Shown: one piece after another, positions 3,068 through 63,844 of the stretch
Numbering within the stretch: position 1 is the first letter of the stretch
Layout of the letters: each line of letters begins with the position of its first letter
NCBI GenBank assembly: GCA_045837725.1
Contig: JBEWZL010000200.1
Coordinates: 124,001 to 188,000 of the forward strand
Direction of reading: 5' to 3'
DNA from: Vermamoeba vermiformis
Taxonomy: Eukaryota
DNA: 64,000 bases
Translations under genes and position numbers: made by a program
Notes under the pieces: generated by a model
Database searches by the model: none
What the model was told of the DNA's origin: nothing
What the model saw: only the letters and a program-made list of their open reading frames with translations

Positions 3068-3191
3068 GAAGACTTTTTTTTGTTCATATTTGTTTTATAG
3101 AAAATAATAATATTTTTAATAAATTACGGTTTTTATTTTATCTACATGATATTTTACATCATTTGTGTTTAATATTTACAAAACTCAACTC

Positions 3192-39097: not shown

Positions 39098-42000
39098 ATG
39101 GAGTTGAACGACACAAAAAAGAAAAACAAACATAAAGAACGTTTATTGAAAGTGTGGAATGCTTTGAAAGGAGGTAGTGATTGTTATGGTTCAGATGTCG
39201 CGGATTTGACGTTGTTTACCTAGGCAAAAAGAAAAACAGCACCACTGCCAATACTAGACGTGCAAATTCAAGGCAACCAACCATTTTGTTACGGATCAAC
39301 ACAAAAAAAACATTATCATTAGGCCCCCAAGCAGGAAGAAAAACAAAAGCAAAAAAAGACCAAAACGAACCACCAGGAAAGCCACCAGAAGTGTGCTGGA
39401 AAAAGTGCAAGGAGAATGGGCCGTTTATGGACGTCATAAGTTGTGTTTGGACGTCGGAGTGGCGTATTATCATTTTAATGTTGAACCACGCAGACAGGAA
39501 GCAGAAAATAGATATATGGTCATTTATTTATTAAATCCAAACTAAATTTTTGGTTTTCTTCTTCTCGATCTGCGAGTTTTTTTTTTTTTTTTTTTTTTTT
39601 TATTATTGCCAGTTTATTATTATTTGAATTATTAATTTTTTTTTTGTTATTTTGATCCTAATATTTAATTATTTTTTTTTTTTATTATTGTTATTATTTG
39701 AATATTTGAATTATTTAATATTTTTTGAATTATTTTTTAACTTGCGTTTTTTCAGCAGGGAAGGCGGGGTGTAGTGCTTTGTAGGGAATATATTCTCGAA
39801 AGTCTGGGCGAGGCCATTTGTATTGTCTTCATGACCAGGAGGTGGCTACAGTAGATCTGGAAGAGTGTCAGGGGAATCTAATTTTCTTACATCAGATTGT
39901 CGGTAAATATATTGTTTGGGATGAATGAAAGTTCGTGTTGAGGGGGTGGGGAGAGAAAATATCGATATGTGGCTAGGAAAAAGTATTAAAGAGGGGAAAA
40001 TGTGCCATTATTTGCGAGGGGTGGTCAGAGGATCGGACACGGAGATGAGATGCTGCACGAAAAAGGAAATGAGAAGAGACTAGGAGCTAGGAACAGTGGA
40101 AACAAAATATAGAAAATAGCACAAGGTCTAATAAAGTGTGAGAAAACGAGGCGGATATAAGAGGAGTAAAAAAAGAAGAGGAGGAGGGAGAGAGGAGTGA
40201 GTGGAGGAGAGGGATGCTGAGAGGGAGAGGATAAGGAAGAAGGGGAGAGGGAGGGGAGGAGAGGGGGGGAGAGAGATGCAAGGGAGGAAGCGGGAGAAAA
40301 AGAGGAAAAAGAGGGAGGAGAGAGAAGAGGAGAGAGGGGAGAAAAAGAAAGGGGGAAAGAGAGCGGAAGAGAGGGGGAAAAGGAAGAAGAGATAAAATAG
40401 AGAAGAGAGGGAGGAGAATGAAGGAAGAAAAAAAGATCGAGGAAGTAAATAGAAGAGGGGGGAAAAAGAAGGGAAGAAAAGAGGGGAGGAAAGTAGTGAG
40501 GAGGATGATCAGAGAGAGGTAGGGGAGGCAAAATATTATATATGATAAGGGGGAGGATAGAAAAGAGGAGGAAGGAGGAAAAGAGAGAAAAAATTTAAAA
40601 TAGGGAATAAGCGTAGAAGGAGCTGAAAGAAGGAGAGGAAAGGGAGAAAAAGAGGGTTAGTAGGGAGGGGCAGGGGGGGGGGAAGAGAGGAAGAAAAGAC
40701 CACTGGAAAGGAGGGGAAGCAGAAGAGCGCAGGGAGAGAGAGGAGAAAGGGAGAGGAAGAGAGAGTAGAAAGATGGAGAAGGTCTGAAGAGGAGGAGAGA
40801 GAGGAAGAAGAGAAGGGGAGAAAGGCGGAGGGGGGGGGAGGAAGGAAGGAGGGGAGAAGGAGCAGAGAGAGGAGAAAGAAGAGGGGGGCAGGAAAAGAGG
40901 GGGGGGGGGGGCGAGGGAGGGGAAAGGGGAGAAAAAAAAGAAAAAAGTGATTGTTTGGTTCAGATGTCGCGGATTTGACGTTGTTTGCCTAGGTAAAAAG
41001 AAAAACAGCACCACTGCCAATACTAGGCGTGCAAATTCAAGGCACTCAATCCCTATTTTGTTTATCGGTATTCAGCATTTCCCAATAATCGTAAATTTAA
41101 TTTGTTAATTTAAACACTTTATCATTTAGGCCCTCCAAGCTCAGGATTAGCACATTTATTTATAGAATCTATATCAAATGCATATAACATTAATTTGGAC
41201 GACCACCAGAAAAATCAGATTTTGTTTCGCGAATCGTTGACAAAAGATCCACGGTTCTTATCGTTCCCAACGTCAGTCAGCACAATCACAAGCGATAATG
41301 ATGGCACTACAAATTATTTGTCTTTGTTGCCGCCCGAAATTCTAACGCGGGTCCTTGCGTTAACAAATCTGCCTGATCTGCTCAACATTTCGACATTAAT
41401 CAAATCGTTTGCCGAATGTACGTGATCATGAAGCAATATAATAGTTATAGACTCTAATAATTTAGTTTTGCGAGAGGACGAGTTTTGGAGACGCTATTTC
41501 GGTCCGGTGCAATCTGGAGCTGATCCGGCAATTAATAATTACAAAGCGCTGTTACGCAATTATCAAGAGCCCTTTGAAGTTTATGCAACGACTACTGATT
41601 TATTGTATGAATAGACCGTTTATAATCGTCAGCGAATTAACCTCTTATTTTATTAGCAAGATCCACTTCAGAAGCGCCTACGAGTTCCAAAATCTTCAGA
41701 AATTCGAAGAAATGACTTATTTTGTAACTTGCGTAAGTGGTCGGCGTTAGTATTTTTAAAACAAAAGTCCGATCTTCAAACCAAAAATGTTTATTTACAT
41801 TAGGTTGACACTTCACGGTTTGATGATGAAGAGTACATTGACAATCATTTGCACATCGTAACACAGCATTTAGAACGACAGCGAGACCGAGCCGAACTAG
41901 GATTTCCTATTATGGTGGTGTTCACTCGCATGGATAAATTGACCGAGAAGCTTGCTGACACGCGTAAGCACATGCACCTTAAAATAAAATCAAGACCTGA

Positions 42001-42432: not shown

Positions 42433-45400
42433 TTAAATCTTCGAAGCAAGAAGGAAATTGAGTTCTTTGACGACTTGATCCATACTCGGTCGATCATCTG
42501 GTGACTGAGCCCAGCACTTGTTGATCAGTTCTGCGACTGCTACTGGAGCGGTTGGTGGAATGGGAAGGCGCTTGCCCTCGAGGACCATGTTGGCTACTTG
42601 CCACGGGTGTTCCAAGTGCGAGTAAGGCATTTGTTGCGACATGATTGTCCACAAAAGAATGCCAAAGCTGTAAATGTCTGCTCCTTTTTCATATCGCTTG
42701 TTCTCCATGATTTCTACAATAAAACGTTAGTATGAGAGCAACAGCAATTGAACGGCCGTGAGACCAGCAGTTCACGATGACACGTGTCAACATAAACTTT
42801 TGATGTCGTAGAACTTACCAGGAGCCATGTAAGTGGGAGTACCAACACCCTTGGTGAACTTCATGGTCACTTCTTCGACAATCGATCGAGCAGTGCCAAA
42901 GTCAGTCAGTTTGACATTCACTGATGCTTCTTTGGCTGTCGAGGCAACCAACACATTCTCTGCTTTGATGTCACGATGAAGAATGTTGTTTGCGTGCAAG
43001 AATTGAAGTGCTTCTGCAACATCCAATGCAATCTTCAGTTTCAATCCTGTGTCCAATGGTCTGCTGTTCAACAGTTCTTGAAGATTGCCTCCTGAAACGA
43101 ACTCTGTCAAGATGGCAAGCTTTCCAGGCACTTTTGATGCTCCGATGAACTGCACAATGCATCTGTGGTGCAAGTTCATCATCATTTGCACTTCGCGATT
43201 GAACTCTTCGAACTGCTGGATGTTCATTTCTTGGAACTACGATGGAAACAGAGTTAGTTTGAGCTTGACACCTTGATGACACTTTTGACACGTGTCAATC
43301 GCTTTATCGCAATGACTTACCTTGAGCTTCTTGAATGCGATCGTTTGACCTCTATATCGTGCTTTGTACACAGCGCCAAATCCTCCTTCACCAAGTGCTT
43401 CAGTCACACCATCAACTTCATCGATGTCGATCCAAGGTGATGGTTCGCTTGCACTAACGAATTCCAACAAAGAGAACTGTTTGAGTTCAGGAACTTCGAC
43501 CCACAGTGAGATGTTTGTGCGTGTTGTCATTCTCATTTGCAGCATCAGTGTCACGTCAACGAAGCCTTTGTCGCGTACATCGACTTCGAACGGGTCTATT
43601 GTCAGTTGATACTTTCGACGACTGAACTGGATGAAAGTTGACACGAAGACTCTTCTCGAGCAATCGTTCGATTAGTCCTCGCGACCTCGAGGCCTTAGTA
43701 CGTGGCTGTATCCTGAACGTGTCTTTGTACATGGAATCAACTTGCAAGAGATTGCCTTTGGTGCCAAAATCGAACTTTGTGTTTGACAATTGAATGGGCA
43801 AGTCTTCGATTGGTTTGAGCGAGTAGTCTTCTGGTGCATGCCACTGAGGAAGTGAGAACTGATCGTCTGCTCCGTTCTTTGTCGTCAGTGTCAGCAGTTC
43901 CACTCTGTTCAGCAGTTGTTCAACTCGTCGTTTGCCTCTGAAATATCTGTACGTCACTGCACCAATGACAATGAAGAGTATGCAACCGCCCGTAACAGAG
44001 ATTACAATTGCAATAATGACTCCTGTTAAAGTGTTGTAAGTTGACACGTGTCAATGTCTGATTCGTGCAACATACCTCGATCAAGTGACGTGTCTGGGCA
44101 CGAGACAGTAGCAGTGAACAATCGCTTTCCTGCTTGCTCGCGTAGACTCGTGGTCACGGAACAGACTTTGCCTTCAGCCTTCACTGTCATCTTCGACGTG
44201 TCACCGCACGAGAAGTACAAGAACGGCGCGTCATACTGCTCGTCCTCCAAGTCCTGCATGTCGATCTCTATTGCGCCCTCAATGGTGGCACACTCGACGT
44301 CAATTTGCTGGTCTGGCTTGATCACTAGAGTTCCGCCTTGTTCGATCCGAAGTTCTATAAGTTCGCGTGTTAGAATTGACCTTTCGCGAGCGGTATTATA
44401 CTTACTGTCAAAACTGTCTGCGTGCTCGTACTTGACACGTGCTCCTTGTGGAATCAAAAGTAATTGCTCAAGCGGACAACGTTCAGTGAAGTCGCACACG
44501 TATTCAGCGTTTGCACAGCAGAAATTGTTTCTAGCGAGTCCACAAGCAGCTGTACGATTGTTTGACGCTTCAAACTGTTCGGGTAACTGAATGCAGCCCG
44601 AAAACGCGTTGAGAGATATGTTGCTGTTGAATGTTAGAGGATTGAAATTTTCAGATCTATGTCAGGGTGACTTACAAGTTCACCAAGTTCCGCAGATTAG
44701 ACAAGTTTGGTATTGTTCCGCTGAGTCGATTGCGTGAAAGATCACTATTACATCGTCGTTAGTGTTAGTCTTCAGACCATGACCGAATGACTCACAGGAA
44801 TTCGAGCGTTCGCACGTTGACAATAGAAGACGGAATGGTGCCGCTCAGCGAGTTTCGCGCCAAATTACTACGAAGGCGTTAGCTTGCATTAAATGGGTGT
44901 TGCGAAGTGAGACTTACATCCGCGATACGCGCTGCAGATTGAACAAACTGGGCGGAATTTCTCCCGAGAGTCGGTTGTTGCTCAGATCCAGCTGAGTGAT
45001 GGAGCGCAAAGACTCGAATAATAGCGGAATAGTGCCGACCAAGTTGTTGTGAGACATGAACAGGCCTTGTAACGTGTACATCTCGCCAATAAATGAGGGG
45101 AAAGTCCCGTCTAATCTGTTCATCGTGACATCCAAATTTTCAAGCGCTCGTAGATCCACAAAACTCGGCGGGATGTTTCCCGTCAAACTATTTCCAGCGA
45201 CAAGACTATTGAAGGTAATTAATTAGTATAACTTTCCCGGATAACATTGAATCACGTACAAGTCTCGCAAAGACCTGAGCGAACTAAGCTGAGACGGAAT
45301 TTGCCCTACGATCCTGTTGAATGATAGATCGCTAATAATATTGTTAATAAGCAATAGAGGGGATAAGGGTTGAGCTAACTTACAGCACTTCGAGCATTGG

Positions 45401-48400
45401 CAAGTTCGAGAAAGTTGGAGGAATGACACCGCTGAACAAATTAAGACCAAGTCGCCTGCCGCAAAGTTAAACCATGACATATCAGCTGTTCAATGGACTT
45501 ACAGTTCGCGCAGCTGTCTTGGTCGTGCATTTAGCGTCGGAAGAATTCCCGTTAGCATGTTACTTGTGAGATCGCTGAACATGGTTGTTAGAAAGGTCAA
45601 GGTAGCAGAGTCACGTGACTTACATTATTTGAATATTCGGCAAGAACATGGCAGGACTGATGCCGCCGCTCAATCGGTTGTGACCTAACCGCAGCGTGTG
45701 AAGTCCAATAATGAATGGATTGAACCTCGGCAATGGTCCCGTGAATTGATTGAACGACAAAATGCTAGTTATTGCGGGTAAGTATTAGGAATGTAATAAT
45801 AGTAGATTAAAAGTTACTTACATATTTTGAATGGCATTCGTTAAGATCGAGTTTGGAATTGTTCCGCTCAGAATATTGAATGACAAGTCACTAACATTAA
45901 AAGTTAATCGTTACAATAAGTCATATTCTTGTAATAGTAACTGCTTACATATGTCTGAGACTACTAGTTTGAGGGAAGGCAGGAAGGGTGCCCGTCAAGA
46001 AATTGTGCGAAATATCACTGACGCAAACGTTAAGTCGCGTTAATTAGAACAAATGTCTGATAGACAGAACTTACATCGACGTGAGCAGAGGAAGTCTCAA
46101 ATAATCTTCAGGAAAGGTTCCAGTAAAGCCGTTTCGTGCTAGATTGCTAAAACGAAGTCGTAAGTATTATGTGCAACGTTTGGACAAAAACTTACAAAGC
46201 GGTCAATCTCGGGGCTAGAGCTGGCAATGGCCCTTGAAAGAAATTGTCCGACAGATCACTAGTTAGTCTTTGTTAGCAAATAGAAGAGTGCTCGTTGCGT
46301 TATTACGTACAGAAATTCAAGCCTAGGACCAATAATATCTGGCAGCGTGCCGGTGAGTTCGTTGTGTTGTAATTGCCTAACAGAGTGTTCAGTGCTAAAA
46401 ATCACGTGGTTGCGTTACTTACAATACTGAGCAACGCGTGCCATTCGTGAGTGGCAATGGGCCCGTGAGTTGATTGTACGACAGATCGCTAAAAGAGGAG
46501 TTAGAAGAGTTATGGGTGGAGAAGTGGTATATTAAGGTATCCAGGTACTTACATAGCCATGTCTGCGTCACTATCCAAAAGACCAAGCGGAATTGTTCCG
46601 CTTAATCGATTATTACTCAAGTTTCTTTAAATCAAAGGGTTAGTTATTCCGCTTGAGATTGACGTTAAAACCTTACAATTCTGAAAACTGCCGGCCAACC
46701 ATAGTGCGCGGTATCGGGCCTCTAAAATTATTCGCCTGCAGGAAAATACTTCGTAATCCAGGTAACTGATCGAAGGCATCAGGAATTGTTCCGCTGAACG
46801 AGTTGAACTGCAAAGACCTATTTAGGAATAGCTAAGTACGATAGTCAGGCATTTATGAAACGCTTACAATGCTCTTAGCGAGGACATGTTGCGGAATGTG
46901 AATATTGTGCCGGTGAGTTCATTAAAGCCCAGCATGCTACAAGTATTAGATTAGAACAATACAGGCAAAAGAATAAAGATCTTCTTACAGAGCCGTCAAC
47001 GTCGTTAAATTTTGAAAGTTCTGCGGGACCGTTCCCGTGAGCCGATTGTTCTCCATTCGTCTATGCAATAAAAAAGTTAATATGAAAAAATAAATGTTTT
47101 TTCGCGTACAATGTTTGTATTGAAGAAAGCTGCCCAAGTTCTTCAGGGATAGTTCCGTATAATTGATTGTTGTCCATAGACCTTGGTTGATTAATTAAGT
47201 TAAAACGATTGTCATAATAACGTATGAATAAGGATTGATTAACTTACAAAAAATTTAACGCTTGTAGCGAACCAAGCGAAGCGGGAATTGTTCCAGTCAA
47301 CAAATTGTCGTCTAAATGAACGAAACTTAACCGAGGATTCGTAAATGGCGGAATGGTGCCAGAGAGTTGATTGCCGCTCAACAATCTGAATAAGACTTCT
47401 TAGTTTGACAGCAGTATTTTAAGATGCCGCTAAACTTACAAATCACGTAACATAGTACAGTTGATTATAGAATCAGGTATAGGACCAGTTATATCATTCG
47501 AAGCGAGCATACTAAGATACGATTAACAATACCGTCGTATATTAAAAAGTACTTACAATCGTTCCAAACTTCGCAAATTACCAATGTTACTTGGAATCGT
47601 TCCTCTCAATTCGTTATGAGTCATGTCCCTGCATATTATCGTTAATAAGGACTAATAAGGTCGTGGTCCTATGTACGCACAAGATTTGCAAATTAACGAG
47701 GTTGGTGATCGTGTCTGGAATCGTTCCCATCAATAAAGCACCGTTGGCATTACTGCAAAGATGTTAGTAAGCGAATAGTACGGTGATATTGGTTACGTAC
47801 AATCTTCTCAAATTGACTAAATTGCCGATCCGTGGATCCAGTTCACCCACAATTCTAGATCCGTGAATACGCCTAAGTATAATCAATTAATGAACGTGGT
47901 ATATAATACGCCAGTAGATTAGAACGTACAATTCTTCGAGGTTGATGCAGTCGTAAATCTCAGGAAACACTATCAACTGCGATTGAAACAAGTCCCTAAT
48001 TTAGAAAATTAATTAAAAATTGTTCCGCGCGTTTAAAATAAATAAATTTTCGTACAACACTCGCAGTCTTTGCAATCTGCCTAAACAGGACGGCAATCGA
48101 CTCGGTGTAGCGAAGCTCAGATCTAGCACTTCTAAATTCACCACATCGCACAGCCTATCATCTGTCAATCGTGTGTTCGTCATGACCCTAAATTCAATAG
48201 TTAGATAATTCCTGAATTAATGTCTCGTGGACCCTTACAAGCGACGAAGGTTTTGTAATGAGCCAAAAGTTGGTGGTAATGCTACCAACGCAGCTGGAAG
48301 TGATCTATAAATTGGATAATTAATGTTAATATTTAGAAGTTCAATACACTCGTTAGTAGCTAGGCATACAATTCTTCCAAAAAAGGAAATGACGTGCCAA

Positions 48401-49216
48401 AGTTGTCAGGCAGGCGTTGGATAGTTGGCGTCTGAATCAAGAACCTATTCATAATATATATTACATTATGCTAGCGCATAAGTATATACCGAGCACTTCT
48501 TACAGTCGACGCAGATTCGTTAGTACTGTCACACTATTCAGCGTGTTGTTCGTGAAACGAGTACCGGCAATATTTCTAATTTAGGTTAATTTTCCAACGT
48601 TTAATCAAATACTACGAAGCATTAAAGGCTTACAGTTCCACGAGAGAGTTTTTGATTAAGGCAATCTCATCTGGCAAAACAGATAAAAGTGTATTCGTAA
48701 AATCCCTGTAATATCATATTATATACATATAAAACATTAAAAATGAATTTGTGGTATTACATCGACAATTAATGGTTTGATTATACTTACAAACTCGTTA
48801 CTTGCGTGAGGTTGCCTACCGACGCTGGAAGTGTACGAATATTCGCTTGGGCTAAACGGCTTATGATGCATATTAATTAAGATAATAATATTTAACGAAT
48901 GATTCAGCTTTTGTTGAACAGATTCGGCGCCCAAATTTAATTTTTAATTGGAAAATCGAAATTAACCTATTTGCGCCTTTTAATGCAGCATAAGCCGTAC
49001 TTACATTGATATAACGTTATTGCCATCGTTAGAACAGGTTACACCAGACCAAGAACAAGGATCCGATGCGTTTGTTCCAACCTGGATGAACTGTTCATTT
49101 ACCGCCAGAAGGTCAACAAAAAAATTATATTCTTCGCTAACCAAAGCATGCACGGTATTTATTCCACCAACGAAGAGGAGGAAGATCAGAATTGGAATAC
49201 CGTTCCAAATCCGCAT
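42433..49216 (-). CDS. LRR receptor kinase RK2 (apparent +1 frameshift at 43613-43615; sequencing error or pseudogene)
   Basis: Signal peptide MRIWNGIPILIFLLFVGG, then DPCSWSGVTC, an LRR exon array, TM, and a kinase nearly identical to RK1. One extra A in TCGAAAGTAT relative to the paralog frame (S/T-K-Y-Q-L-T). Confidence 0.88.
42778..44053. repeat. Intronic palindrome TGACACGTGTCA, three copies in RK2 (42778, 43286, 44042)
   Basis: One perfect copy in each of the three corresponding introns. Confidence 0.9.
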
Positions 49217-49632
49217 CTCCACATCCACTGATTAAATATACAACTCGTTGTTGTGAACCGTAAGTATCAACAATAGATAATATCAATTTTTACCATAATT
49301 TACGGAATATTTGACGAGTGATTGACAGCTTGTTTCTCGTACGAGGATCGCGAAACAGAAGGTTCGGAGGAGAAACTATCATTGCGACTACGAGCAATAT
49401 ATTTGAAATACCATCATGTTATCGGTATACTACCAGCGACTGTTTTGCATGAGCTGGATCGACATCACAATGGTAAGCCTGAAATATCGTATTCCTTTTC
49501 CGGTGAGACGTCAAGTCAAGTCAAGTCAAAAAATTCGTAACAATTATAGCGTGCTGATTTGAACACTGCAGCACAAAGCTTGGTGTAGTGCAAACGCACA
49601 TGAAGAAGGGGAGCAGACAGTGAATTTTACGG
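49217..49632. promoter_or_regulatory. Putative bidirectional promoter between divergently transcribed RK2 and RK3
   Basis: About 415 bp separates the two head-to-head start codons. Regulatory function is inferred from position only. Confidence 0.5.
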
Positions 49633-52600
49633 ATGCACGTCGCTATTCCATATTATCTGCAATTATTTATTGTTATTTCATGTATATTTTTTGTAAATAG
49701 ATCGTCGTGCTCACTTGTAGAGGAAGAGAGGCAATTTTTTGAAGACTTAACGACAGCAAATCCAGCCTTTGTTCTGCCAGTTAGTGTGGATGATGTTTGC
49801 TCGTGGGGACGTGTTAACTGTACAGAGGACGGTTCGCACGTGATAGGGTTGTAAGTAATAGTCTTTTGCTATCAATCTAATTTGCAAATCTCTTGATTAA
49901 GATTATTCCAGCGCAGATCTGAAAAAGATCACACAAAGTCCAATTTATTTACCAATATTATTTAATGACATAATTCTGGCTTAGCGATCGCCGTATTGAT
50001 TTAATATTAACTTAAATAATTGTAATCAATTGTAAATCTTTCTCTGTGACACACGCGTCTCCTTGATCTGACCAGAAAAGCTCAAATATTTTTAATTAGG
50101 AATCTAGCTCGCCAGCGAGTACCAATTCTGCCGTATTCCATCGCTAATCTCACACACTTGCGTAATTTGTAAGTTTGAACGTTAGTCTGAAGGAAACAAC
50201 AACTAATAATCACCTTATAATTAGGGACCTTTCTTTCGTGGGCATTGGAGACCAAGGAATAGAGCGATTAATTCCTCTGTCAGGCCTCGTTCAGTTGTAA
50301 GTCGATCTAATTTTTTTCTGGATTGCAAAACTGAAAAACCGTTATTTTTTAGAGTCCTACGTCAAACTAACGCTTTTGAGCTTCCTGAGACTTTTGGATA
50401 TTCATTTCCTAATTTGGAGATATTGTACGTCCATGCGCCATTTTTAATATTGAAGCTAATTTTATTGACCAGAGATTTGCCAGACTCGTTAGTTTCTATT
50501 CCAATCGGCTTTAATGAACTTCGAAACTTAAAGAGCCTGTAAGTAAGCCAATGTACACCTCATTCGATCTAATAAAGCTTTCAGAACAATGCGCTTTGGA
50601 AATCCGGCTTACATGGAAAGATTTTGTGGCCTGCCTAACCTCGAAGTCCTCGATTTAGTGAACTCAATCGCTCAATCATTACCGCAATGTTTTAGCAATG
50701 GATTTCCAAAACTACGCACTTTGTAGGTTTAACATTACAATAGTAGATCGCGATCAGACCCTAATTCTTTTTGTTAGAGCTCTCGCTTGGTCGTCTTTGA
50801 GAGCATTTCCTGATATTTTTGGCCTGGAGACTTTAGAGGAATTGTAAGATAATTGTAAAATTATTAATGGGTATTGATCCTGATCTCTTCAGACACATTT
50901 CCATGACAACTCTTAATGTAATGATACCACGCGATATAGGCAGATTAAGGAGCTTAAGGACATTGTACGTATTAATGGTTGCTTGGTGTCATAGGCGCTG
51001 ACTTTGTGATAGGAACTTCTTTTCAGCGGGAATTATTGGCCCGATACCAGACACGATTGGAGACCTGCGAAATCTTGAAAACCTGTAAGTATAGATCTAT
51101 TGCTATATAAGGTAATTTTATGCTAACAGATCTCAGATTGCTTGGAGATAATACTCTCTTGAGCACTATACCAGCGTCGATAGGCAGACTCACGAATTTA
51201 AAGCAATTGTAAGGATTGTTTTCAACGTCTTATTATTCAGTACTAACTATTTTGTAGAACTTTAAGTTCAAACACTTTAGTGAGAGAAATTCCGGAGGAG
51301 ATCTGCAACCTCGAAAAATTAGAAAGTCTGTAAGTATCTGACCACATTCGTCGATAGATAAATGATTAATACGTATATATCGCAGTAATTTAGGCAACAA
51401 CCAGCTATCCGGAGGTATTCCGGACTGCATTGGCAGATTGACGCGATTGCAAAACTTCCAGTTGAGCCACAACACTCTCGACGGCACGGTCCCTTCATCT
51501 ATTGGCGCCTTGACTAACTTGACCACATTGTAAGCACTATTTGAGTACGTAGTTGCAATACTAACGAGCGAATTTTAGGCAATTTAGCAACAACCAACTG
51601 ACCGGAACTTTGCCCGACGAGTTGGGAAATTTACAACAATTAGACGCGTTGTAAGTTCTATATGAATATCTATTTGCATGCTAATTATGTTGCGTAGGTC
51701 TTTCGATAATAATCAATTGGTTGGTACTCTGCCAGCTACCCTTCAAAACCTTCAACGCCTGTTAATTTTGTAAGTCATGCCAACCTAACACGCGCTATTA
51801 ATCGGTATTAATGCATATTATTAGCCAAGCGTCTTTCAATAACCTTGAAGGTCCTCTATTCAACATCTCTAACATGCCTCGCTTGGAGTTTTGGCACGTA
51901 GTATTTCCTCGTGGTTTTCGAATATTATAGTAATAAGTCTTTATAGCGAGGTTCAATTCAATGCTCTGAGCGGTCAATTGCCTGATTTCTTCACGAGCGA
52001 GTGCGGACTCTCTAGCTTTCAAGCGCAATCGAATAATCTCACGGGCACCATTCCTCGGTCCCTGCAGAACTTGAATTATCTGCAGCAATTGTAGGATTAA
52101 TATCAATGTAGTTCATACCATATATGCTAATGTAATATTAATCAGGAATTTGGGCAACAATAGAATTACGGGCACGATCCCAGAACTTTTGTTCACGCAG
52201 CCACAGCGATTAACTGTCGTGTAAGTTGTTTGACAATACGTTAAATTCACGTTGATTCTAAGCTTAGACTCTTTTTAATAGGGATCTCTCGGATAATTTT
52301 ATCACCGGCACTGTGCCTCCTATTATCGCTCGTTTGCGCTCATTGTACGTACAAGACTCGACACGACAAACAAGCAGAACTAACTTTCTTTAATCAGATT
52401 CTTAGAGAACAATAATTTAATCGGTGCTATCCCACCACTGGACAATGCAACGGTGTTGAACTTCATGTAAGTGGAGCGATGTCATCGTTCAATCGTCAAT
52501 TGATAACTAACTGACTGACCAGCGATCTTTCGAATAATAAGCTCGAAGGTACCTTGCCTCCGTTGCCAACACAACTCTTGTTTGCGTGAGTACCGAATAA

Positions 52601-55600
52601 TACCATTGCTCCTCCAATTACTGACTTTGCGAAAGTTCGTTTGCATCCAATCTTCTCACGGGCACATTTCCGATCGAGTACACGCAAATCCCTGGCTTGG
52701 CGACGCTGTAAGATGAGAATTCTATATAGCGCCCTATACTAACGGGTCTTAACTTCAGTGATTTGTCCAATAATGACCTGTACGGCCCGTTCCCGAGAGG
52801 AATTCCGCAGAACCTTCCTTTTCGACATTTAGACGTGTCGCACAATCGAATGAATGGCACGATCCCTTCCGGATTGATTTCACAATCAATTCAGACCTTG
52901 TAAGCTCTCTCCTTACTGTCCGTTTTATATGAAACTAACCGTGACCATATTGTAGAATTTTGTCAAACAATCACTTTGGCGGAACTCTACCGACGTACAA
53001 TTCACTGGCATTCAATTTGCATACATTGTAAGTGGTCCGATACGATATCGTTCAATTCGACGTCAGCGTTAGTGCGCTAATTACTTCAATCAACAGACTA
53101 TTGGACAACAACCGAATCGGAGGAAATGTACCACGTGCCCAATTTTCATTAATGAACCTCGAAGTATTGTACGTGACGTCATATTCGACTTATCAACGGA
53201 ATTAGTTCTTACATTAATTATTCCAGGAACTTGTCTGGCAATCTTTTGCGAGGCAATTTGCCAGCAATTACGCAACGTCTACGTAGATTGCGAGTGCTGT
53301 ACGTAATCTTAATGCATGTCAATAAGCACTCACTAACATTGCTCGTAGTAACATCTCGTTCAATTTTATATCCGGCGTTCTTCCGCCCTCGCTATCGAAC
53401 ATTGTTAATCTCGAAGAGCTGTAAGTATAAGCTCATCGTATCTGAATTTCTAACGTTCGACAGAAACCTATCGGCGAACGACTTTATTGGCACGATTCCT
53501 TCTCAGTTAGGCGCTTTGGCCAGTCTTCGAGTATTGTAAGTTGCAGATGTAAAATCGGTGTATTGATTAAATCTGTCTAGGAACTTGGCCGTGAATCACT
53601 TAACTGGCGGAATCCCGATTAGTTTTGCAGGCCATGAGTCCCTGACGTCACTGTAAGAAAAGAACGGCACCTCTATTAATGATTAACCCGTAAATAGGAT
53701 TCTCAAGTCTAACCAGCTGTCTGGCACTATTCCGAACTACATTTGTGAACTTTTCAATCTTCAACGACTGTAAGAATCCACTCTAAAAATCAGTGCAAAA
53801 TATTAACCGAGCTATTTTTAGTGATTTGTCGGTCAATTATTTCACTGGAACTCTTCCCGAGTCAATAGAACAACTGCGAGGCTTGCACTATCTGTAAGGA
53901 TTACTAACGGTGTCGTTGAAGAGCTCTTCTTAATTGTGCTTAGGGACCTCGGAAAAAATCACATATCGGGCGAGATCCCTGTCAATTTGTTCGCCTTGCA
54001 GCGACTGCGCCGATTGTAAGTCGAACTGACTTAAAATATTCTAATGCGGAGGTGACTAATGCTGATGTAGGGATCTCTCGCAAAACGAACTTTCAGGCAC
54101 TATTCCACAGGAAATATCAAACGCACGCTTGATTGAATGGATAAACTTGTCGCGCAATAAGCTCCAAGGAACTCTGCCTTCATTAATGGGACTAACTGAA
54201 GTCATAGAATTGTACGTACTTGAGATTTCTTAGTAGTCTTCTTCTAACAATCCTTCAGCCATATTGCCTCGAACAATTTAGTCGGCTGCATACAGCTGCC
54301 ACGCATATTTGAAAGTTCTCGGAACAGATCCCACATAGCAGCCTGTTCCATCGACAACAACCGTTTCTGCTGTTCACGCAATGACTACGTGTGCTCTACA
54401 ACAGGTTCGTTGGCTTTTTAATCGCTGCACACGTGCTTTTGATTCTAATCTCGTCATTACAATCCAGATTATTGCCCACTAGATGAAGCTTTGATAATTG
54501 CCAGTGGAGACCGCGTTCGAATCAAACCTCGCTTCCATTATGACAGTAAGCTTTCAGATGTCTTGACGGCGCTTATTTAACACGTATCAGAGCTTGTCGT
54601 AGAGCAAGGCGGCACTCTTGTGATATTGCCCGAGACAAAGTTAGACATTGAGTGCGTGACGGTACTCGGTACAATTGAAGTTGACGTCAGTGAGTTAGAA
54701 GAAGAGTCTATAGACGTGCCATTTTTGTCGTTCTCGTGCGGTGAGACGGAGAGTATGACTATGACAGCTGTGGGCTTTGGAAAGAAATGCGAAGTTTCTA
54801 GCACGACCGTTCAAAATGCTGGCTCGAAACGAAAGTTCACCGCCAAAGTCCCATGTCCTAACAATTTACTGCCAGAAGGTACGGAGTTGAAACCCATTCC
54901 TTTACAGTCGCTAACATACTGCTGTAGGAACGATCATTGCCATCATCGTGTCAGTTACTGGTGGTTTCATTTTAGTGATTGTAATTGGTGGCGTGACGTA
55001 CAGATATTTCAGAGGCAAACGACGAGTTGAACAACTGTTGAACAGAGTGGAACTGCTGACACTGACCACAAAGAACGGAGCAGACGATCAGTTCTCACTT
55101 CCTCAGTGGCATGCACCAGAAGACTACTCGCTCAAACCAATCGAAGACTTGCCCATTCAATTGTCAAACACAAAGTTCGACTTTGGAACCAAAGGCAATC
55201 TCTTGCAAGTCGACTCCATGTACAAAGACACCTTCAGAGTGCAGAGCCGCACCAAGATTGGTCAGTCCCGAGGACTTGTTGAGCGACTACTTGAGAAGAG
55301 TCTTCGTGTCAACTTTCATCCAGTTCAGTCGACCAAGTACCAGCTCACAGTTGATCCGTTCGAGATTGACATTCGCGACAAAGGTTACGTCGATGTGACA
55401 CTGATGCTGCAAATGAGAATGACAACACGCACAAACATCTCACTGTGGGTCGAAGTTCCTGAACTCAAACAGTTCTCTTTGTTGGAATTCGTTTGTGCAA
55501 GTGAACCATCACCTTGGATCGACATCGATGAAGTTGATGGTGTGACTGAAGCACTTGGTGAAGGAGGATTTGGTGCTGTGTACAAAGCCAAGTATCGTGG

Positions 55601-56465
55601 TCAAACGATCGCATTCAAGAAGCTCAAAGTAAGTCGCCAAGAAGGAATGACACGTGTCAAAAGTGTCATCAAGTGTCAAGCTTGAACTAACTCTGTTTCT
55701 ATTGTAGTTCCAAGAGATGAACATCCAGCAGTTCGAAGAGTTCAATCGTGAAGTGCAAATGATGATGAACTTGCACCACAGATGCATTGTGCAGTTCATC
55801 GGAGCATCAAAAGTGCCTGGAAAGCTTGCCATCTTGACAGAGTTCGTTTCAGGAGGCAATCTTCAAGAACTGTTGAACAGCAGACCATTGGACACAGGAT
55901 TGAAACTGAAGATTGCATTGGATGTTGCAGAAGCACTTCAATTCTTGCACGCAAACAACATTCTTCATCGTGACATCAAAGCAGAGAATGTGTTGGTTGC
56001 ATCGACAGCCAAAGAAGCATCAGTGAATGTCAAACTGACTGACTTTGGCACTGCTCGATCAATTGTTGAAGAAGTGACCATGAAGTTCACAAAAGGCATT
56101 GGCACGCCTACATACATGGCTCCTGGTAAGTCCTACCACATCGCAATATTACACGAACGAGGTACTAACGCATTACAGAAATTCTTGAGAACAAGCGATA
56201 CGAGAAAGGAGCAGACATTTACAGCTTTGGCATTCTTTTGTGGACAATCATGTCGCAACAAATGCCTTACTCGCACTTGGAACACCCATGGCAGATCGCC
56301 AACATGGTCATTGAAGGTAAACGCTTGACCATGCCGCCAACCGCGCCAGTGGCAGTGGCAGAACTGATCAGCAAGTGCTGGGCTCAATCACCAGATGATC
56401 GACCGAGTATGGATCAAGTCGTCAAAGAACTGGATTTAATTATCGAACTTGCAAACGCACACTAA
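49633..56465 (+). CDS. LRR receptor kinase RK3
   Basis: Signal peptide, DVCSWGRVNC, about 31 LRR-bearing exons (50100-54403), TM GTIIAIIVSVTGGFILVIVIGGVTY, and a complete kinase. Confidence 0.92.
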
Positions 56466-59400
56466 ACTATTAAACTCTGTAGCGCAGAAATGCCGTTACA
56501 ATCATAAAAATTTATCTGGAACAAGGTCCGTTACGCTATTTTTACTTTACGTTAAGGTTATAACGACAAAAGTAGAATGTAACTTTAATTAGAACATGGG
56601 AAAAGATGCAAACAAGCTTTGAGAAATTTAATTACGCGGATGTGATTCATTTTTTCGACATGACAGCCCAAATTTTCACTTGTCCTCATCAATGGCATTG
56701 TGTCGCTGTGATAGACGGAACAAACATGCTTTGCCATTAATATAATTAAAAGTATGCGAGATAATTATTTATTTGTGCTCATCCAGCTGGTTTTGCTCTT
56801 GCTCACGAGCTTTACGTTTGGCGATTTAATACCCTCCGAGCAAATATTTTTTGAGGAATTATTACAGCAAAATCCCACGCTGAGCCCGAGTTTAAATCCA
56901 GGCGGATCGATTAATCGACCATGCTCTTGGTTCGGTGTTTTGTGCACCGCCACCGGAGAGAATGCTTTAGAGATGTAAGTAATCATTATTTGCAATGGTT
57001 ACAACGGAGTGGTTGCTTGATTGATCTGATCAACCTAATCCATTTCCTTCTAACACGACTGATTCCATTATTTTCATTAGAAGTTTGATACTACAGTTTA
57101 ATGTCATACCAAACTCTATTGGCAACCTTCAATATTTGAGATCGCTGTAAGTTCCAGATCAGCTCATTTTTATTCCCTTATTTTTCTTTAATAAAATGTA
57201 AATATCAAATTAATAATTATGCTAATGCATCTTGCAGAGGGTTGTCGGGCAGAGTATTGGCAATCCCACCAGAAATTGCAAAACTTAATCAAACACTAGA
57301 AAATCTGTAAGTTACGTTACAGATCCGAAAACAGCATGTTATTTAATCTATTTAAGCTATTTATTATTTAATCTAACTGCCTCATTTGCTAGGAGGATTA
57401 TTGGCGCCCAGATCAACGAGACAGATGTCACTTACTTGCTACCGCTTCGTAATCTTCGCATTTTGTAAGTACTTTACTATTATACGCTTAATATTTAAAT
57501 GCTTACTAATTGTTATTAAGAACACTCACTTTGTCAGTCCCTCGGGTCTCAACTTTACCGCCGAACTTCGCAACGTCTTTTCCGAATCTAGTCGAGCTGT
57601 ACGAAAATTCGTTAATACTCACGAGGATAATGCGTACTAATGCCTTCTCAGACAATTGCCAGAATCCTTAACAGCGTTGCCGGATCTGTCGGCCTTGCAG
57701 AGATTGAGAACATTGTAAGTGGACGACGGTACTAACAACAATTATCTAATTATAAATTATAATTAAGGATATTAAGGGGCTATAACGGTCCCTTCCACGA
57801 CTCAATTTGCAATCTAATAGGATTAGAACGGTTGGATCTCGAAAATGCGCTTGGAGTGAGAAGACTTCCTGAATGCATTAACAGAGTTATTAGCTTGCGA
57901 TATTTGTACGTTAATTATTACAATTACGATGCTCAGAATTTAACTTGGATGCAGGAACTTGGCCCGATCCGGTCTTGGATTTGTTCCAAATGTTTATGGC
58001 TTGCGCTTCCTCGAAGAACTGTAAGAATATTCTTTAATAATGAACGTAACCATTCTTATATTAATAAATTATTTAGGTATTTGAACGAAATTAGGGCCGT
58101 GGGAACAATATCACCTGAAATTGGACAGTTGACGAGCCTCAAAATATTGTACGATAGACAGTACACCATATATGGACAAATAATATGATACTGATACTAA
58201 ATTTATAGCCATGGCGAATCTATGACGACAACTAGCGGACTGCTTCCTGATACGATCGGCAATCTCGTAAATTTGGTCGAATTGTATGCGCCGAAATTGT
58301 TCATTTTATTATCGAACTAACCTAGATATTAAATAGGAAGTTGTTTAATAACGAAATTAGTGGCACTATTCCAGCGAGTATCGGGAATCTTAAACAACTG
58401 AAAATGCTGTAAGAAAAATATCTGGTATACTTATTGTACTAATTTATTTGCCTTCAAGAGATTTACGACAAAATAGCTTAGAGGGCACCATACCGAACGA
58501 AATTGTTAATTGTGAGAGCATGGAAGTTATGTACGTAAATTTTGTTTATTGAATCAAAACGACCAAACTAATCACGATCTTTCGATAACGATAGAATGTT
58601 AGATAATAATATGCTCAGTGGTACAATACCGAATGACTTGGGAAGGCTAAAAAACTTGATGGGCCTACAAATCATAAGCAACGTGCTTGAAGGCACAATT
58701 CCTGCGTCATTAGCGCAGTGTAGCAATCTGTCGCTCATGTAAGCATAATTTAACTCGTCGTATTTAACACGATATGTCTAACGTTATCAGCGCGCTCATG
58801 TCAAATCAACTGACCGGAACATTGCCGCCAGAATTCTCACAGCTGTCAAATCTGGTTCATTTGTAAGTCCATGATTTTCATCGACCTTTTGTTTGACATA
58901 TTGACAGGGTTATGGGCAATAATCTGTTGCATGGCACGATCCCGCGGTCGTACTCGAATCTACGTAAGCTCTGGAGCATGTAAGTACTAGGGCAATGGAC
59001 AGCATGTGTCAAAGTGTCACTAACAAGATTGACACGTGTCACAAACTGCTACCCAGTACAGCGAACAAAATTAACAACCTTTACTTTCAGTCAACTGTCA
59101 TACAATAATTTGGAGGGGTCGCTCATTAGCTTTGCTGAAATGCCAGAACTACGGTCAATGTAAGGGCTTTGAACTTACTCTTATGAATCTGCGACACTAA
59201 CGGCGCTAACAGAACAATGGAATTTAATCGCCTTACGGGCGCCATTCCCGACACATTTTACACCAATACGGTGTTGAGTCACGTTTTCTTGCAAAACAAC
59301 GAATTATCGGGCACTATTCCGCAGTCAATCAGTTTGCTGCCAAGCATATTGGACATGTACGACAAAAAAATTTTAGCATTTTTCAGTGCGCTACTAACCC

Positions 59401-62400
59401 TACTGTCGCAGCAATTTGAGCCGAAACCAACTACGCGGAACAATTCATCCTGCAACCTTTCTAGATAGATCATTAGTACGGCTGTACGTAATTAATAGCT
59501 GCGATTAATCATCGATAATTAACTAATTGATGGCAGCGACTACTCGAACAACTTGCTCGAAGGGCCGTTACCTCCTATTAGATCCGCTGTGCTCAACATG
59601 GTGTACGTCTTTCGATTAGTCAATTTCGGACTAAAAGCAAAATACTAACAATAATTTCGAAGAAATCTTGCAAATAATAGGTTGAACGGTTCAATTGGCC
59701 ATTTCAGTGCATGTGGGCAGTGCGCTACTATGTACGTAAATACTAATATTATTATTCGCTTTATTAATCTTAATCTCTGTATAGTGACCTCTCAAATAAT
59801 TTCTTCGAGGGATCATTGCCTGACCTCAACACAAGGATGACTCAGTTGTACGTAAAACAAGGTTACTTTTTGTTCGCAATTACTAACTCAACTTATTGTA
59901 GCGACCTGTCGCGTAACCAATTAAGCGGAACCATTCCCCAATATTACGTTTCGAACACTCATTTGAATCGATTGTAAGTGCAGGATGTTAATTGACCTCT
60001 AATTAACAAATCTAACGGAGCCTATTTTAGGGTGTTAGCGCATAACAATCTTACTGGAGAACTTTTAACGGACGGTTGGCCTCTGCTGCGGCACGTGTAA
60101 GTAAAATGAAAAATTTAATACGACTACAAAAATAACCCAAAAATAGAGATGTCTCTTATAATCAATTGCAAGGAACCATTCCAAGACGACTTATGGAGGT
60201 TGCCCAAGTTTTGTAAGCATCAGATCTAACTTTTTTTTCGTTTTCGGCCTAACTTATTTACTTAGAATTTTTTCGCATAATCAATTCTCTGGCCCATTTC
60301 CATCAGTATTTATCCGAACAGACTTGGTGCGGATCCATTTTGACAATAATAGGCTCTCAGATCTACTTCGTCCTAGTTTCCTCGATCATCCGAACTTGGA
60401 AATTATGTAAGAACAACACTATTAGCGGCTAATTATTACTTTATTAATGCATTAGCAGGGACCTTTCAAACAACAATTTCCGTGGCATGTTGCCGGCAAT
60501 TACATTATCGCAGCCATCGAAGTTACGAGTGCTGTAAGTCACAATCTTACTTGCCAAATAAGGCAATATTAATATGGTATACTGATAGGCGCATGTCTGG
60601 CAATCGCTTTATGGGCGCAGTTCCGGGCACATTTGCGCTGATGGCGAGCCTCGAGATCCTGTATGTCAAACACAAAATTCTAAGAAATCCTAACTAATGC
60701 TTCTTTTGCAGTGACTTATCGAATAACTTACTGAATGGTCAATTACCGCCACAATGGGGCTCATTTAGACACTTGCGTGAATTGTACGGTGAAAATTCTA
60801 GCACCCGCGCGTACCGCTAACTTTTTGCATCTAGGTACCTGTCTGATAATCGATTTACTGGAAACTTCCCGGCAACATTTGATGCTCTTGAGTCCCTCGA
60901 AGTACTGTACGTATAGCTATTATATTATTTTGTAACCTGTCTTCTCACCAATCGCATCAGTGACGTGTCCAACAACAATTTTGATGGACCACTGCCCGGC
61001 GCTCTGTTTAACTTGTTGACTTTGCAATCATTGTAAGACCGTTAAATACAGTAGTAATGTATTGATTATTAATAATTTTGCAGGAACATGGCTCACAATC
61101 GATTCACCGATCAGATCCACATTACTTTGTTCCAACTCTTGCTTACGCTTACGGACATGTATGGCCTTAAAGCTTAGCATACTAACACCTTACTAACCTA
61201 TTATAGTAATTTGAGCCACAACTTGTTCACGGGCACACTGCCGACAACATTGTTCAATTTGCATCGTATCAGACGAATGTACGTTCACCTCGGCAATCCG
61301 TTCTTGCATAATGTACTCATTATTATAACTTCGTAGTGATCTATCGTATAATTCTTTGACGGGCACCATCCCTAGTGCAGTATCAAATATGAGAACTCTC
61401 GAAGAACTGTAAGCCGATAATTTTTCACAGTCTCCTTGCGCGGAATGCTAATTAAACATCTTGTTAGATCGCTATCGGCAAATCAACTGAGCGGAACAAT
61501 ACCTGTATTGTCTGGATTGAAAAACTTGGCCAAATTGTACGTCAACATCAATGACCTGGTCATAAGCAAGGCTCTAACCTTTCCTTATTTAGTAATGTCG
61601 ATTCAAACTCGTTGACTGGCTGTCTGCGGCTACCAACTCGATTCTTAGCCTCAAATAACTCTACGACGTACACAGGTCAATGTTCAATCGAAGGAAATCC
61701 AATCTGTTGCAGTCCAGAGCAGTACACGTGCACGACTAGCGGTACGAACTATGGAGCTAGAGTCAATGTCCGTGTGCTAAACAAGAGTTATCTTTGCAGG
61801 TTGCAATGCAGACCGTGTGTTACATGCCAGTCAAGACCGGGCCTGGGTTATAGTCCGCACTGAAGGCTTTCCCTATGACAGTAAGTTGTCATATTAAGCA
61901 CAATTGTCATTATAACTCATCAACTGCTTTGCAGAAATCATTGTGGACCCGGGAGCAGTGCTGACATTGCCGACAGCTTTCAGTGGCTCAGTCTACTGTG
62001 CAAATGTCACGGGTGTCATCGAAATACTGCCCGTACACAGCGAGACATATGCTCCTACGGTCGTAACTCACACTTGCGGCGTGTTCTCTCCGAGTTCAGT
62101 GTTCATGAGGGACGAGCGATGTCGCATTACAAATCGTGCAGTGAGTGCGCAAGGTGATGCAACAACGTACACGTATGACTGGCAGTGCACGCAGCCTGAG
62201 CCAGCTGTGTCGACTGGAGTGGTTGTAGCTGCTGTAGTTACGAGTGTTGGTGGCACTATTTTGTTCGTGGTGATTGGCATCATTTCCGTGCGTTATGTAC
62301 GAGGCAAACGACGAGTCGAACAACTGTTGAACAGAGTGGAACTGCTGACACTGACCACAAAGAACGGAGCAGACGATCAGTTCTCACTTCCTCAGTGGCA

Positions 62401-63466
62401 TGCACCAGAAGACTACTCGCTCAAACCAATCGAAGACTTGCCCATTCAGTTGTCAAACACAAAGTTCGACTTTGGCACCAAAGGCAATCTCTTGCAAGTT
62501 GATTCCATGTACAAGGACACGTTCACGATGCAAGCCAAAGCAAAGCCGAGCAACTCCCGCGGCTTAATTGAACGACTCATCGAGAAGACTGTGCACGTTC
62601 AGTTCCATCCAGTTCAGTCGTCAAAGTTCCAACTCACCGTGGACCCAGCTGAAATTGATCTTCGCGGCAAAGATGAAGTTAGTGTGACACTGATGCTGCA
62701 AATGAGAATGACAACACGCACAAACATCTCACTGTGGGTCGAAGTTCCTGAACTCAAACAGTTCTCTTTGCTCGAGTTTGTTTGTGCAAGTGAACCATCA
62801 CCTTGGATTGACATCGATGACGTCAACGACATTAGCGAGCCACTTGGTGAAGGAGGGTTTGGTGCTGTGTACAAAGCCAAGTACCGTGGACAACAAGTGG
62901 CGTTTAAGAAACTCAAGGTAAGTTGTGACAATTAATGAAATGACACGTGTCAACACGTCAAAAGTGTCATTTACTAATCGCTGTCATGAACAGTACCAGG
63001 AAATGGACCTACCATTGCTTGAAGAGTTCAACCGCGAAGTGCAAATGATGATGAACTTGCACCACAGATGCATTGTGCAGTTCATCGGAGCATCAAAAGT
63101 GCCTGGAAAGCTTGCCATCTTGACAGAGTTCGTTTCAGGAGGCAATCTTCAAGAACTGTTGAACAGCAGACCATTGGACACAGGATTGAAACTGAAGATT
63201 GCATTGGATGTTGCAGAAGCACTTCAGTTCTTGCACGCGAACAACATTCTTCATCGTGACATCAAAGCAGAGAATGTGTTGGTTGCATCGACAGCCAAAG
63301 AAGCATCAGTGAATGTCAAACTGACTGACTTTGGCACTGCTCGATCGATTGTCGAAGAAGTGACCATGAAGTTCACCAAGGGTGTTGGTACTCCCACTTA
63401 CATGGCTCCTGGTAAGTCTGATCACGTGGCACTTTTTGACACCGTGAAAAATATTGACACGTGTCA
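55648..63466. repeat. Intronic palindrome TGACACGTGTCA copies in RK3 (55648) and RK4 (59030, 62941, 63455)
   Basis: Perfect copies, all intronic, mostly with adjacent AAGTGTCA/TTTGACAC half-sites. Confidence 0.9.
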
Positions 63467-63844
63467 TACGTCGTACATGGTACACTATTGATCATCGTTT
63501 GCGTGTTCATCCAAGCATATATTACCCAATTAGGCAAGTGCTTACTAACATTCACCCCTGCAGAAATCCTCGACAACAAGCAGTACGAACGCAGTGCAGA
63601 TATTTACAGCTTTGGCATTCTGTTGTGGGTGATTATGACGCAAAAGATTCCGTACATTGACGTCAAGAACTCGTGGGACATTGCGCGCATGGTACTTGAG
63701 GGCAAACGATTGCACATTCCTGGCTCAATGTCGATCACAGTCAAGCAGCTGATCGAGAAGTGTTGGGCACAGGAACCGAGTGACAGGCCAACTATTGATC
63801 AAGTCGTGCAGCAGCTGAATTCAATTTTGATTTCAAAAATGTAA
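56754..63844 (+). CDS. LRR receptor kinase RK4
   Basis: Signal peptide, RPCSWFGVLC, LRR exon array (about 57080-61741), TM GVVVAAVVTSVGGTILFVVIGIISV, and a complete kinase with a more divergent last exon. Confidence 0.92.

Follow-up and report, generated by a model that had tools for sequence, protein, structure and literature searches.

Four paralogous receptor-kinase genes lie in tandem in a 64,000-nucleotide (nt) stretch of Vermamoeba vermiformis DNA (assembly GCA_045837725.1, contig JBEWZL010000200.1, positions 124,001 to 188,000 of the forward strand), hereafter the window, in whose own numbering all positions are given. The genes were recognised from leucine-rich repeat (LRR) and kinase motifs in six frames and from the density of donor sites; we call them RKA, RKB, RK3 and RK4, the first two being RK1 and RK2 of an initial annotation of the same DNA, which had used the other two names as they stand. 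The region at 50100-54404 is, in our reading, the ectodomain-coding part of RK3, and the phase-2 introns that divide it almost repeat by repeat probably record how the array was built up. The layout itself, with one repeat per exon and introns in phase 2, is real and far from what chance would give, and it represents a known gene layout in a new lineage. In the sequences of these four genes nothing indicates that LRR exons were recently exchanged or duplicated; the cytoplasmic half is the only part that visibly shows exchange among the paralogs.

Exon lengths, intron phase and splice sites

The RK3 coding region occupies 49633-56465 on the forward strand, and our model, which starts from an ATG at 49633, joins 38 exons into 1559 codons free of internal stops. 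Its LRR exon array (50100-54211, forward strand) consists of 31 exons whose flanking introns are all in phase 2, with Pfam matches to LRR_1 and LRR_8 falling on single exons. The initial annotation had counted about 31 consecutive exons here, mostly of 63-75 nt with a few doubles of about 140 nt, and the curated table bears this out with 26 single-repeat exons (63-75 nt) and five doubles (138-144 nt), all multiples of three; 18 are 72 nt long, three 69, two 66, two 63, one 75, two 144, two 141 and one 138. The start that had been given for the region, 50100, also holds, and its end moves by one base, the C-terminal cap exon closing at 54404 and not at 54403. In order, and all on the forward strand, the LRR exons are 50100-50168, 50225-50296, 50353-50424, 50473-50538, 50585-50722, 50778-50843, 50893-50964 and 51013-51084, the last of which had been singled out as an example and is indeed exactly 72 nt long, encoding NFFSAGIIGPIPDTIGDLRNLENL; then 51137-51208, 51258-51329, 51386-51529, 51579-51650, 51698-51769, 51825-51893, 51947-52090 and 52146-52220; then 52282-52344, 52398-52466, 52523-52585, 52636-52707, 52759-52899, 52956-53027, 53097-53168 and 53227-53298; and lastly 53349-53420, 53464-53535, 53581-53652, 53698-53769, 53822-53893, 53944-54015 and 54071-54211.

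From exon 1 to the cap exon all 32 RK3 introns are in phase 2, while the five introns downstream are in phases 1, 1, 1, 0 and 1. The first intron is unusually long at 249 nt, and the other 31 up to the cap exon measure 43-69 nt, the median of all 32 being 52. The last two exon bases before these introns are TT in 19 cases, CT in nine, and AT, GT, GC and TG in one each, and every following exon opens with xLxxN, so that the split codon is that of the first Leu of LxLxxN; donors that cut a beta-strand Leu codon after its second base were just what had been proposed. Were the three phases equally likely, the probability of 32 phase-2 introns out of 32 would be (1/3)^32. This figure has to be read with care, since repeats copied from one unit do not carry independent introns.

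The same pattern, as had been suggested, extends to the other paralogs, where it brings the count to 128 phase-2 introns among the 128 LRR-region introns counted; the count leaves out the intron that precedes the cap exon in RKA and its counterpart in RKB, both likewise in phase 2. The residue at the junction is Leu in 84 of the 128, Ile in 22, Phe in 14, Val in four, Met in two, and Cys and Ala in one each (L/I/F/V/M in 126), and with donors of the form NT| it is always hydrophobic. Among the 126 LRR-region exons of the four genes, 107 are of 60-78 nt, 18 are doubles and one is a quadruple. All are multiples of three, and only four of the 1988 possible skip junctions would create a stop codon, which bears out the point that exons of this symmetric kind permit skipping, duplication or swapping in frame. 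The introns are genuine interruptions: retention would bring in an in-frame stop in 114 of 128 cases, and 91 of the 128 are not multiples of three. Donors are GT in 127 of 128 introns (GTAAGT in 46 and GTACGT in 26), and branch-like CTAAY motifs occur in 69.

Two further lines of evidence lend indirect support to the exon table. A hidden Markov model (HMM) of the LRR unit, run over the window in six frames, gave 140 domain matches, 131 of them inside curated exons. A metagenome scan yielded two loci, the upstream sequence of one (L001) being too short to show LRR exons; the other (L002) has exons of 72, 72, 144, 72, 72 and 69 nt, each followed by a phase-2 intron, and a cap exon that exits in phase 1.

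Gene models and transcript evidence

The exon models were derived from the sequence itself, on the basis of GT/GC..AG sites, open frames and LRR register, and the LRR splice sites are accordingly predictions. The final tables were merged by hand from several parsers, guided by LRR register and by likeness between paralogs. Models from a longest-frame parser were dropped, as they read through short in-frame introns; those with a high intron bonus were dropped for over-splicing the kinase part; and those based on position weight matrices and codon usage were set aside since they misplaced several acceptors, because AAG acceptors (11 of 128) are rare in the training set.

Outside the LRR array, RK3 begins with an exon (49633-49850) that encodes a signal-peptide-like start and an N-terminal cap (..CSWGRVNCTEDGSHVIGL) and is followed by the 249-nt phase-2 intron; a Pfam search of this exon gave no match at E<=0.01, and the cap is named from its motif. 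The C-terminal cap exon (54259-54404; ..CSIDNNRFCCSRNDYVCSTT) has a phase-2 intron before it and a phase-1 intron after it. Two extracellular stalk exons follow (54468-54545 and 54591-54878), each with a phase-1 intron behind it and with acceptors set by likeness to RKA and the metagenome relative L002; a Pfam search of the stalk exon returned no family. The exon at 54928-55628 carries a transmembrane (TM) helix, a beta sandwich resembling ASH, PapD and MSP domains, and the start of the kinase, which is completed by exons 55708-56125 and 56179-56465 (including the stop; Pkinase 1.9e-30, PK_Tyr_Ser-Thr 7.8e-19). All of these lie on the forward strand.

The other arrays are laid out alike. That of RK4 (57081-61536, forward strand) has 33 exons, with an ATG at 56754, a cap exon at 61593-61741, a stop at 63844 and 34 of 34 introns in phase 2. 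RKB (44676-48859, reverse strand; ATG 49216) has 30 exons and 30 of 30 counted introns in phase 2, and includes a 288-nt exon (44918-45205, reverse strand) holding four repeats, the matching repeats being split by two introns in RKA and by three in RK3 and RK4. RKA (32298-36555, reverse strand; ATG 36832) has 32 exons, with all 32 counted introns in phase 2. RKB and RK3 stand head to head with starts about 416 nt apart (49216-49633), and may have a two-way promoter region in common; from the RK3 stop (56465) to the RK4 ATG (56754) there are 288 nt.

Three RNA runs were mapped on 44400-62180 with a 95% likeness cut, and gave 56, 49 and 113 mapped reads, nearly all in the bins covering 54481-56852, that is, the kinase part, with a depth of 0.04 in two other bins. 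Most reads were 95-99% alike to the window (52 of 56, 43 of 49 and 111 of 113), and four, six and two reached at least 99%. The joint at 55626/55706 of RK3 is present in RNA reads from similar copies, and the last two splice junctions of the gene are backed by a contiguous tblastn alignment of a relative, P0070.

That depth was zero on the LRR parts of RKB, RK3 and RK4 in all three runs might be taken to mean that these are silent or decaying copies, and that the tidy exon pattern is in part an artefact of gene modelling; the single GC donor in the four genes and the way in which automatic models shifted with their parameters could be read likewise. We consider this very improbable, given that open frames run through about 37 repeats in all four curated genes, that LRR register is regained only by removing the predicted introns, and that a relative has an uninterrupted LRR-kinase of 1289 residues on a 4-kb contig, with residues continuous across the two kinase-part introns of RK3. 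Moreover, since the mapped RNA is mostly 95-99% alike, it may stem from another strain or from other copies, in which case the faster-evolving LRR parts may simply fall below the 95% cut.

Collinearity of the four ectodomains

The initial annotation saw in the symmetric exons a substrate for combinatorial splicing or exon shuffling. Exon shuffling at work finds no support in the comparison of the four paralogs of the window, to which our shuffling tests were confined. The four ectodomains form one collinear alignment from the N-terminal cap to the last repeat, with protein identities of 40-46%. This alignment has 36 intron columns, of which 25 are common to all four genes and seven differ by presence or absence, two introns being absent from RK3, one from RKA, two from RKB, one jointly from RKA and RKB, and one jointly from RKB and RK4. 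The remaining four columns are the exon-1 boundary (two columns, owing to an alignment offset), the unit that RK3 lacks, and the cap boundary, which was curated for just two of the genes. Three more repeat boundaries are without an intron in all four genes.

At the level of single units, the positional partner is the best match in 25 and 27 of 37 cases, by the direction of comparison, for RKA and RKB, and in numbers falling to 14 and 13 of 36 for RK3 and RK4, where chance would give about one. Positional pairs score on average 40-53 and other pairs 22-25 (standard deviation about 12.5), a difference of some two standard deviations. At the level of DNA, blastn finds no likeness between the LRR halves of the four genes, and blastn-short gives 17 matches, the longest of 23 nt and all at E>=0.005. 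The longest words common to the LRR halves, within or between genes, are of 13-16 nt, with no near-identical exons at non-corresponding positions, and the introns of different repeats have no sequence in common. Relic or antisense LRR exons are likewise absent from the window, the nine HMM matches (of 140) outside curated exons including only two that reach 5 bits (E 1.9 and 4.5). An all-versus-all comparison of LRR exons had been put forward as the test, with strictly collinear and congruent exons named as part of the result that would speak against the proposal, and for these four genes collinear, congruent exons are what we find. A crude check for selection, comparing concave-face with other variable positions between positional partners in 14 gap-free units of 37, gave identities of 0.26 and 0.30 and no clear signal.

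The idea that the symmetric exons are in present use, through combinatorial skipping into isoforms or ongoing shuffling between family members, draws on the in-frame arithmetic given above, and on the fact that RK3 is without one whole unit. One RK3 exon (51825-51893, forward strand) also has a weak GC donor (TG|GCACGT) where the matching exons of the other three genes have GT donors; it can be skipped in frame, and one gene-finder run left it out with the frame intact, although this unit, number 17, aligns in all four genes. Modular LRR exons are moreover described as being skipped or shuffled in human NLRP3 (PMC6642158) and in brown-algal ROCO genes (PMC11378527). Even so, we regard present use as distinctly unlikely. 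The paralogs are collinear and have no exon-sized DNA in common, the relic and antisense exons that mark ROCO shuffling in Ectocarpus (PMC3341825) are missing here, and the donors are strong, 72 of 128 being GTAAGT or GTACGT. Furthermore, the LRR-kinases of Ectocarpus have modular exons and are reported not to shuffle (PMC3341825), so that the layout alone is not predictive.

The repeat that RK3 lacks is unit 2, present in the three paralogs; the 56-nt intron at 50169-50224 holds no trace of it, which makes for a clean difference of one entire exon.

Origin of the array

The intron positions are older than the split of the four genes, being the same unit for unit, with later changes that are few and mostly absences. 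Because the positions are common in this way, we place the building of the array before the paralogs parted. Under the reading that we favour, a single 72-nt exon with phase 2 on both sides would have been copied in tandem together with its intron, a process that would by itself fix the phase, and the array would have grown to its present size before the four genes separated. What followed would have been erosion only, in the form of the seven lineage-specific intron absences and the one repeat missing from RK3; adjacent absences, such as the three behind the 288-nt exon of RKB, would then be losses.

Introns might instead have been gained repeatedly and in parallel, at a preferred insertion site in each repeat, and not copied with the exon. 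Such gains would fit introns that now share nothing from repeat to repeat, and some positions occur in only part of the paralogs (column 719, for example, in RKA and RK3 alone) and can be read as gains. However, the exons end in NT| and not in the AG| of the usual proto-splice site, 25 positions are common to all four paralogs, and the two adjacent absences of RKB, beside one that it has jointly with RKA, have the appearance of loss. Rice and brown algae have introns in this very place and phase (PMC3050792, PMC11378527), which copying of one unit explains more simply. Parallel gain thus seems to us highly improbable.

Several observations weigh against tandem copying followed by quiet erosion, and temper our confidence in it. 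The tandem-duplication origin is something we infer, and no remnant of the copying is left at the DNA level. The loss of exactly one 24-residue unit from RK3 means that whole-repeat changes do occur. In each comparison the best match is not the positional partner for 10-23 of the 36-37 units, and in each pairing of genes 0-13 off-diagonal pairs exceed the two positional scores by more than 8, albeit with no pattern; units of 24 residues make this test noisy, and old or small exchanges may have taken place. Several LRR acceptors could move by multiples of 3 nt, and the RNA runs that leave the LRR bins at zero depth give no LRR joints. Finally, the genome probably holds additional members of the kinase-module family beyond the four, because word depth in a DNA run (X2, over 44400-62180) is about 640-1000 on the LRR parts and 2400-5700 on 54481-56259, which makes the kinase part three to seven times deeper.

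A wider, more tentative proposal, and one that we rate as rather unlikely, traces the 72-nt phase-2 LRR exon, with its split in the first Leu codon of LxL, back to one ancient cassette of exon and intron. Plant LRR receptor-like kinases (RLKs), brown-algal LRR genes and this probably amoebozoan family would have inherited the cassette, or acquired it by transfer with introns, and then joined it to signalling modules of their own. If this were true, its intron position would rank with the oldest that can be traced in any repeat family, and the occurrence of 'plant-type' ectodomains on unrelated kinases would be explained.

Ectodomain and cytoplasmic module

As part of the reading preferred above, the protein would probably consist of a signal peptide, an N-terminal cap, about 37 plant-type LRRs of 24 residues, a Cys-rich cap, a stalk, one TM helix, an ASH/MSP-like sandwich and a TKL-like kinase. 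The plant-specific (PS) class of LRR has the 24-residue consensus LxxLxLxxNxLxGxIPxxLxxLxx, and in 14 gap-free units from each of the four genes (56 sequences) Asn at position 9 occurs in 52, Gly at position 13 in 53, Pro at position 16 in 52 and Leu at position 1 in 49, which places the repeats in that class. When the four-repeat exon of RKB was compared with sequences in the PDB, the top matches were all ectodomains of plant LRR-RLKs, led by GSO1 (1e-89) and followed by ERL1, FLS2 and PEPR1. The order LRR, TM, kinase is found in the Pfam matches to LRR and Pkinase families together with the hydrophobic stretch that opens exon 54928-55628, which is modelled as a long helix.

In a phmmer search of PDB sequences JAK, CTR1, TNNI3K, PAK and ROCO4 ranked above IRAK4 and a plant lectin RLK (8.6e-19 to 3.5e-14), and the kinase, which is TKL-like, does not clearly belong to RLK/Pelle. 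Between the TM helix and the kinase lie about 150 residues for which AlphaFold predicts a beta sandwich, with a predicted local distance difference test score (pLDDT) of 78.6. A Pfam search of the exon assigned no family to the sandwich, and Foldseek aligned the model with the ASH domain of OCRL1 (1.1e-7), the PapD-like domain of CEP192 (2e-6), HYDIN (1.3e-5) and MSP (2.4e-5), with TM-scores by target of 0.58-0.71; the model thus has the look of an ASH/PapD/MSP-like domain, a likeness of fold only.

A search of 1.84 billion representatives with the cytoplasmic module gave 62 relatives at E<=1e-3. Eleven of these were compared with Pfam, giving six with Kelch repeats (three of them also with Ig), one with EGF and kinase, one with kinase only and three with no family, and the named relatives are transcripts of Vermamoeba vermiformis and Mastigamoeba balamuthi at about 30% identity. 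The module is thus employed behind different ectodomains, its closest named relatives being amoebozoan. A homologue search with the TM exon, restricted to longer proteins, gave one match, and a search of the ESM Atlas had a best score of 0.75, which was not usable. The domain make-up suggests that the four genes likely encode a cell-surface sensor family, in which diverged ligand-binding surfaces are coupled to a common signalling module.

A near-identical cytoplasmic half

All four paralogs contain a near-identical tract, at 54980-56465 on the forward strand in RK3 and at about 31580-30039 in RKA, 43970-42486 in RKB and 62270-63844 in RK4. From about 54980 to the stop, the DNA of the paralogs is 81-93% alike by blastn, and near 54980 a single 100-column step along the alignment takes identity from 0.39-0.52 up to 0.82-0.95. 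Identity among the paralogs is 94-98% in the kinase exon, and 191 nt are the same in all four genes; in the two introns within the tract it is only 46-80% and 20-46%. The most plausible account of this mosaic is patchy gene conversion, which would have affected the cytoplasmic half and stopped near the start of the TM exon.

Other features of the window

Four open reading frames (ORFs) follow one another on the reverse strand at 14430-23546, each with a fungal-type Zn(2)-Cys(6) domain (1e-8 to 3e-10), and look like a tandem family of transcription factors. Between RKA and RKB, at 40174-40927, lies some 750 nt of low-complexity sequence that is rich in purines (GA); it coincides with a spike in GC- and AT-skew and with overlapping rows of tandem repeats. 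A transfer RNA gene (4551-4622, reverse strand; 62 bits) is the sole Rfam match in the window, and an ORF at 2352-2807 (forward strand) has a BTB/POZ domain (2.8e-20).

Significance and comparison with known systems

The family adds a lineage that is neither plant nor algal to those in which each plant-type LRR has a 72-nt phase-2 exon to itself and the intron cuts the codon that it cuts in rice, and so bears on whether the 72-nt exon unit has an ancient origin or several separate ones. It also provides a counter-example to a convenient shortcut, in that an array of symmetric exons does not on its own amount to shuffling or combinatorial splicing. As a family that unites LRRs, a TM helix, an ASH-like domain and a kinase, it may help studies of how amoebae sense prey or partners. 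A limited literature search for LRR-kinase families of amoebozoans and early fungi returned no account of this family or of its exon layout.

Modular LRR exons are known from vertebrates, where phase-2 LRR introns occur in gonadotropin receptors (as cited in PMC11378527), and where human NLR genes place the exon border at one point of the beta-strand, with skipping of NLRP3 exon 5 proven by complementary DNA (cDNA) (PMC6642158). The likeness to the present genes lies in LRR exons of similar size with in-phase introns. The LRR classes differ, however, with 28-29 residues per repeat in NLRs, and skipping there is shown by cDNA, whereas the exons described here are known from the genomic sequence.

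In Tetrahymena, LRR genes contain arrays of 90-bp exons with an extreme phase-2 bias, which are attributed to the clonal expansion of one exon-intron unit (PMC6564038), and these resemble our arrays as tandem LRR exons of equal length and phase 2. They differ in having a 90-nt unit, thousands of young copies that are alike in DNA, and a link to an element resembling long interspersed nuclear elements (LINEs), whereas the unit here is of 72 nt, and the copies are old and diverged in DNA.

LRR receptor kinases are known in oomycetes, Monosiga, Chlorella and Ectocarpus, where they are read as independent inventions (PMC3268121, PMC10463195, PMC2939053, PMC7496461). Those of oomycetes, choanoflagellates and green algae share with the present family a non-plant LRR-TM-kinase order, and their kinases form lineage-specific clades (PMC3268121, PMC10463195). 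The word 'intron' is absent from both papers, which describe no ASH-like domain and list no amoebozoan LRR-kinase family.

The brown-algal LRR-ROCO genes carry one repeat per 72-bp exon, all in phase 2 (PMC11378527, PMC3341825), and in this respect match RK3 and its paralogs. They nonetheless bear the marks of documented shuffling, namely conserved exons, relics in introns and exons on the opposite strand, none of which we found in the window, and their effector is a ROC-COR GTPase, in contrast to the TM helix and kinase of the present genes. A nearer analogue is offered by the Ectocarpus LRR-kinases, which have modular exons and reportedly do not shuffle (PMC3341825).

A further parallel in layout is with plants. 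That similar intron placement exists in plants and brown algae had been stated in the initial annotation, and PMC3050792 and PMC11378527 agree in giving a 72-nt exon, phase 2 and a split at the first Leu of xxLxLxx. In rice, the LRR-kinases of group 5 have 72-nt exons and doubles of 144 nt, in phase 2 and split at that same Leu (PMC3050792), and plant LRR-RLKs more broadly (rice group 5; SERK/LRR-RLK II) resemble our genes in their 24-residue repeats, their 72-nt exons (with some of 66, 69, 75 and 144 nt) and their LRR-TM-kinase order. Set against these plant genes, the present family has a kinase that is not clearly RLK/Pelle and an ASH/MSP-like domain between TM helix and kinase, and it combines, in a non-plant organism, about 37 repeats, nearly all on single exons, with introns of about 50 nt.

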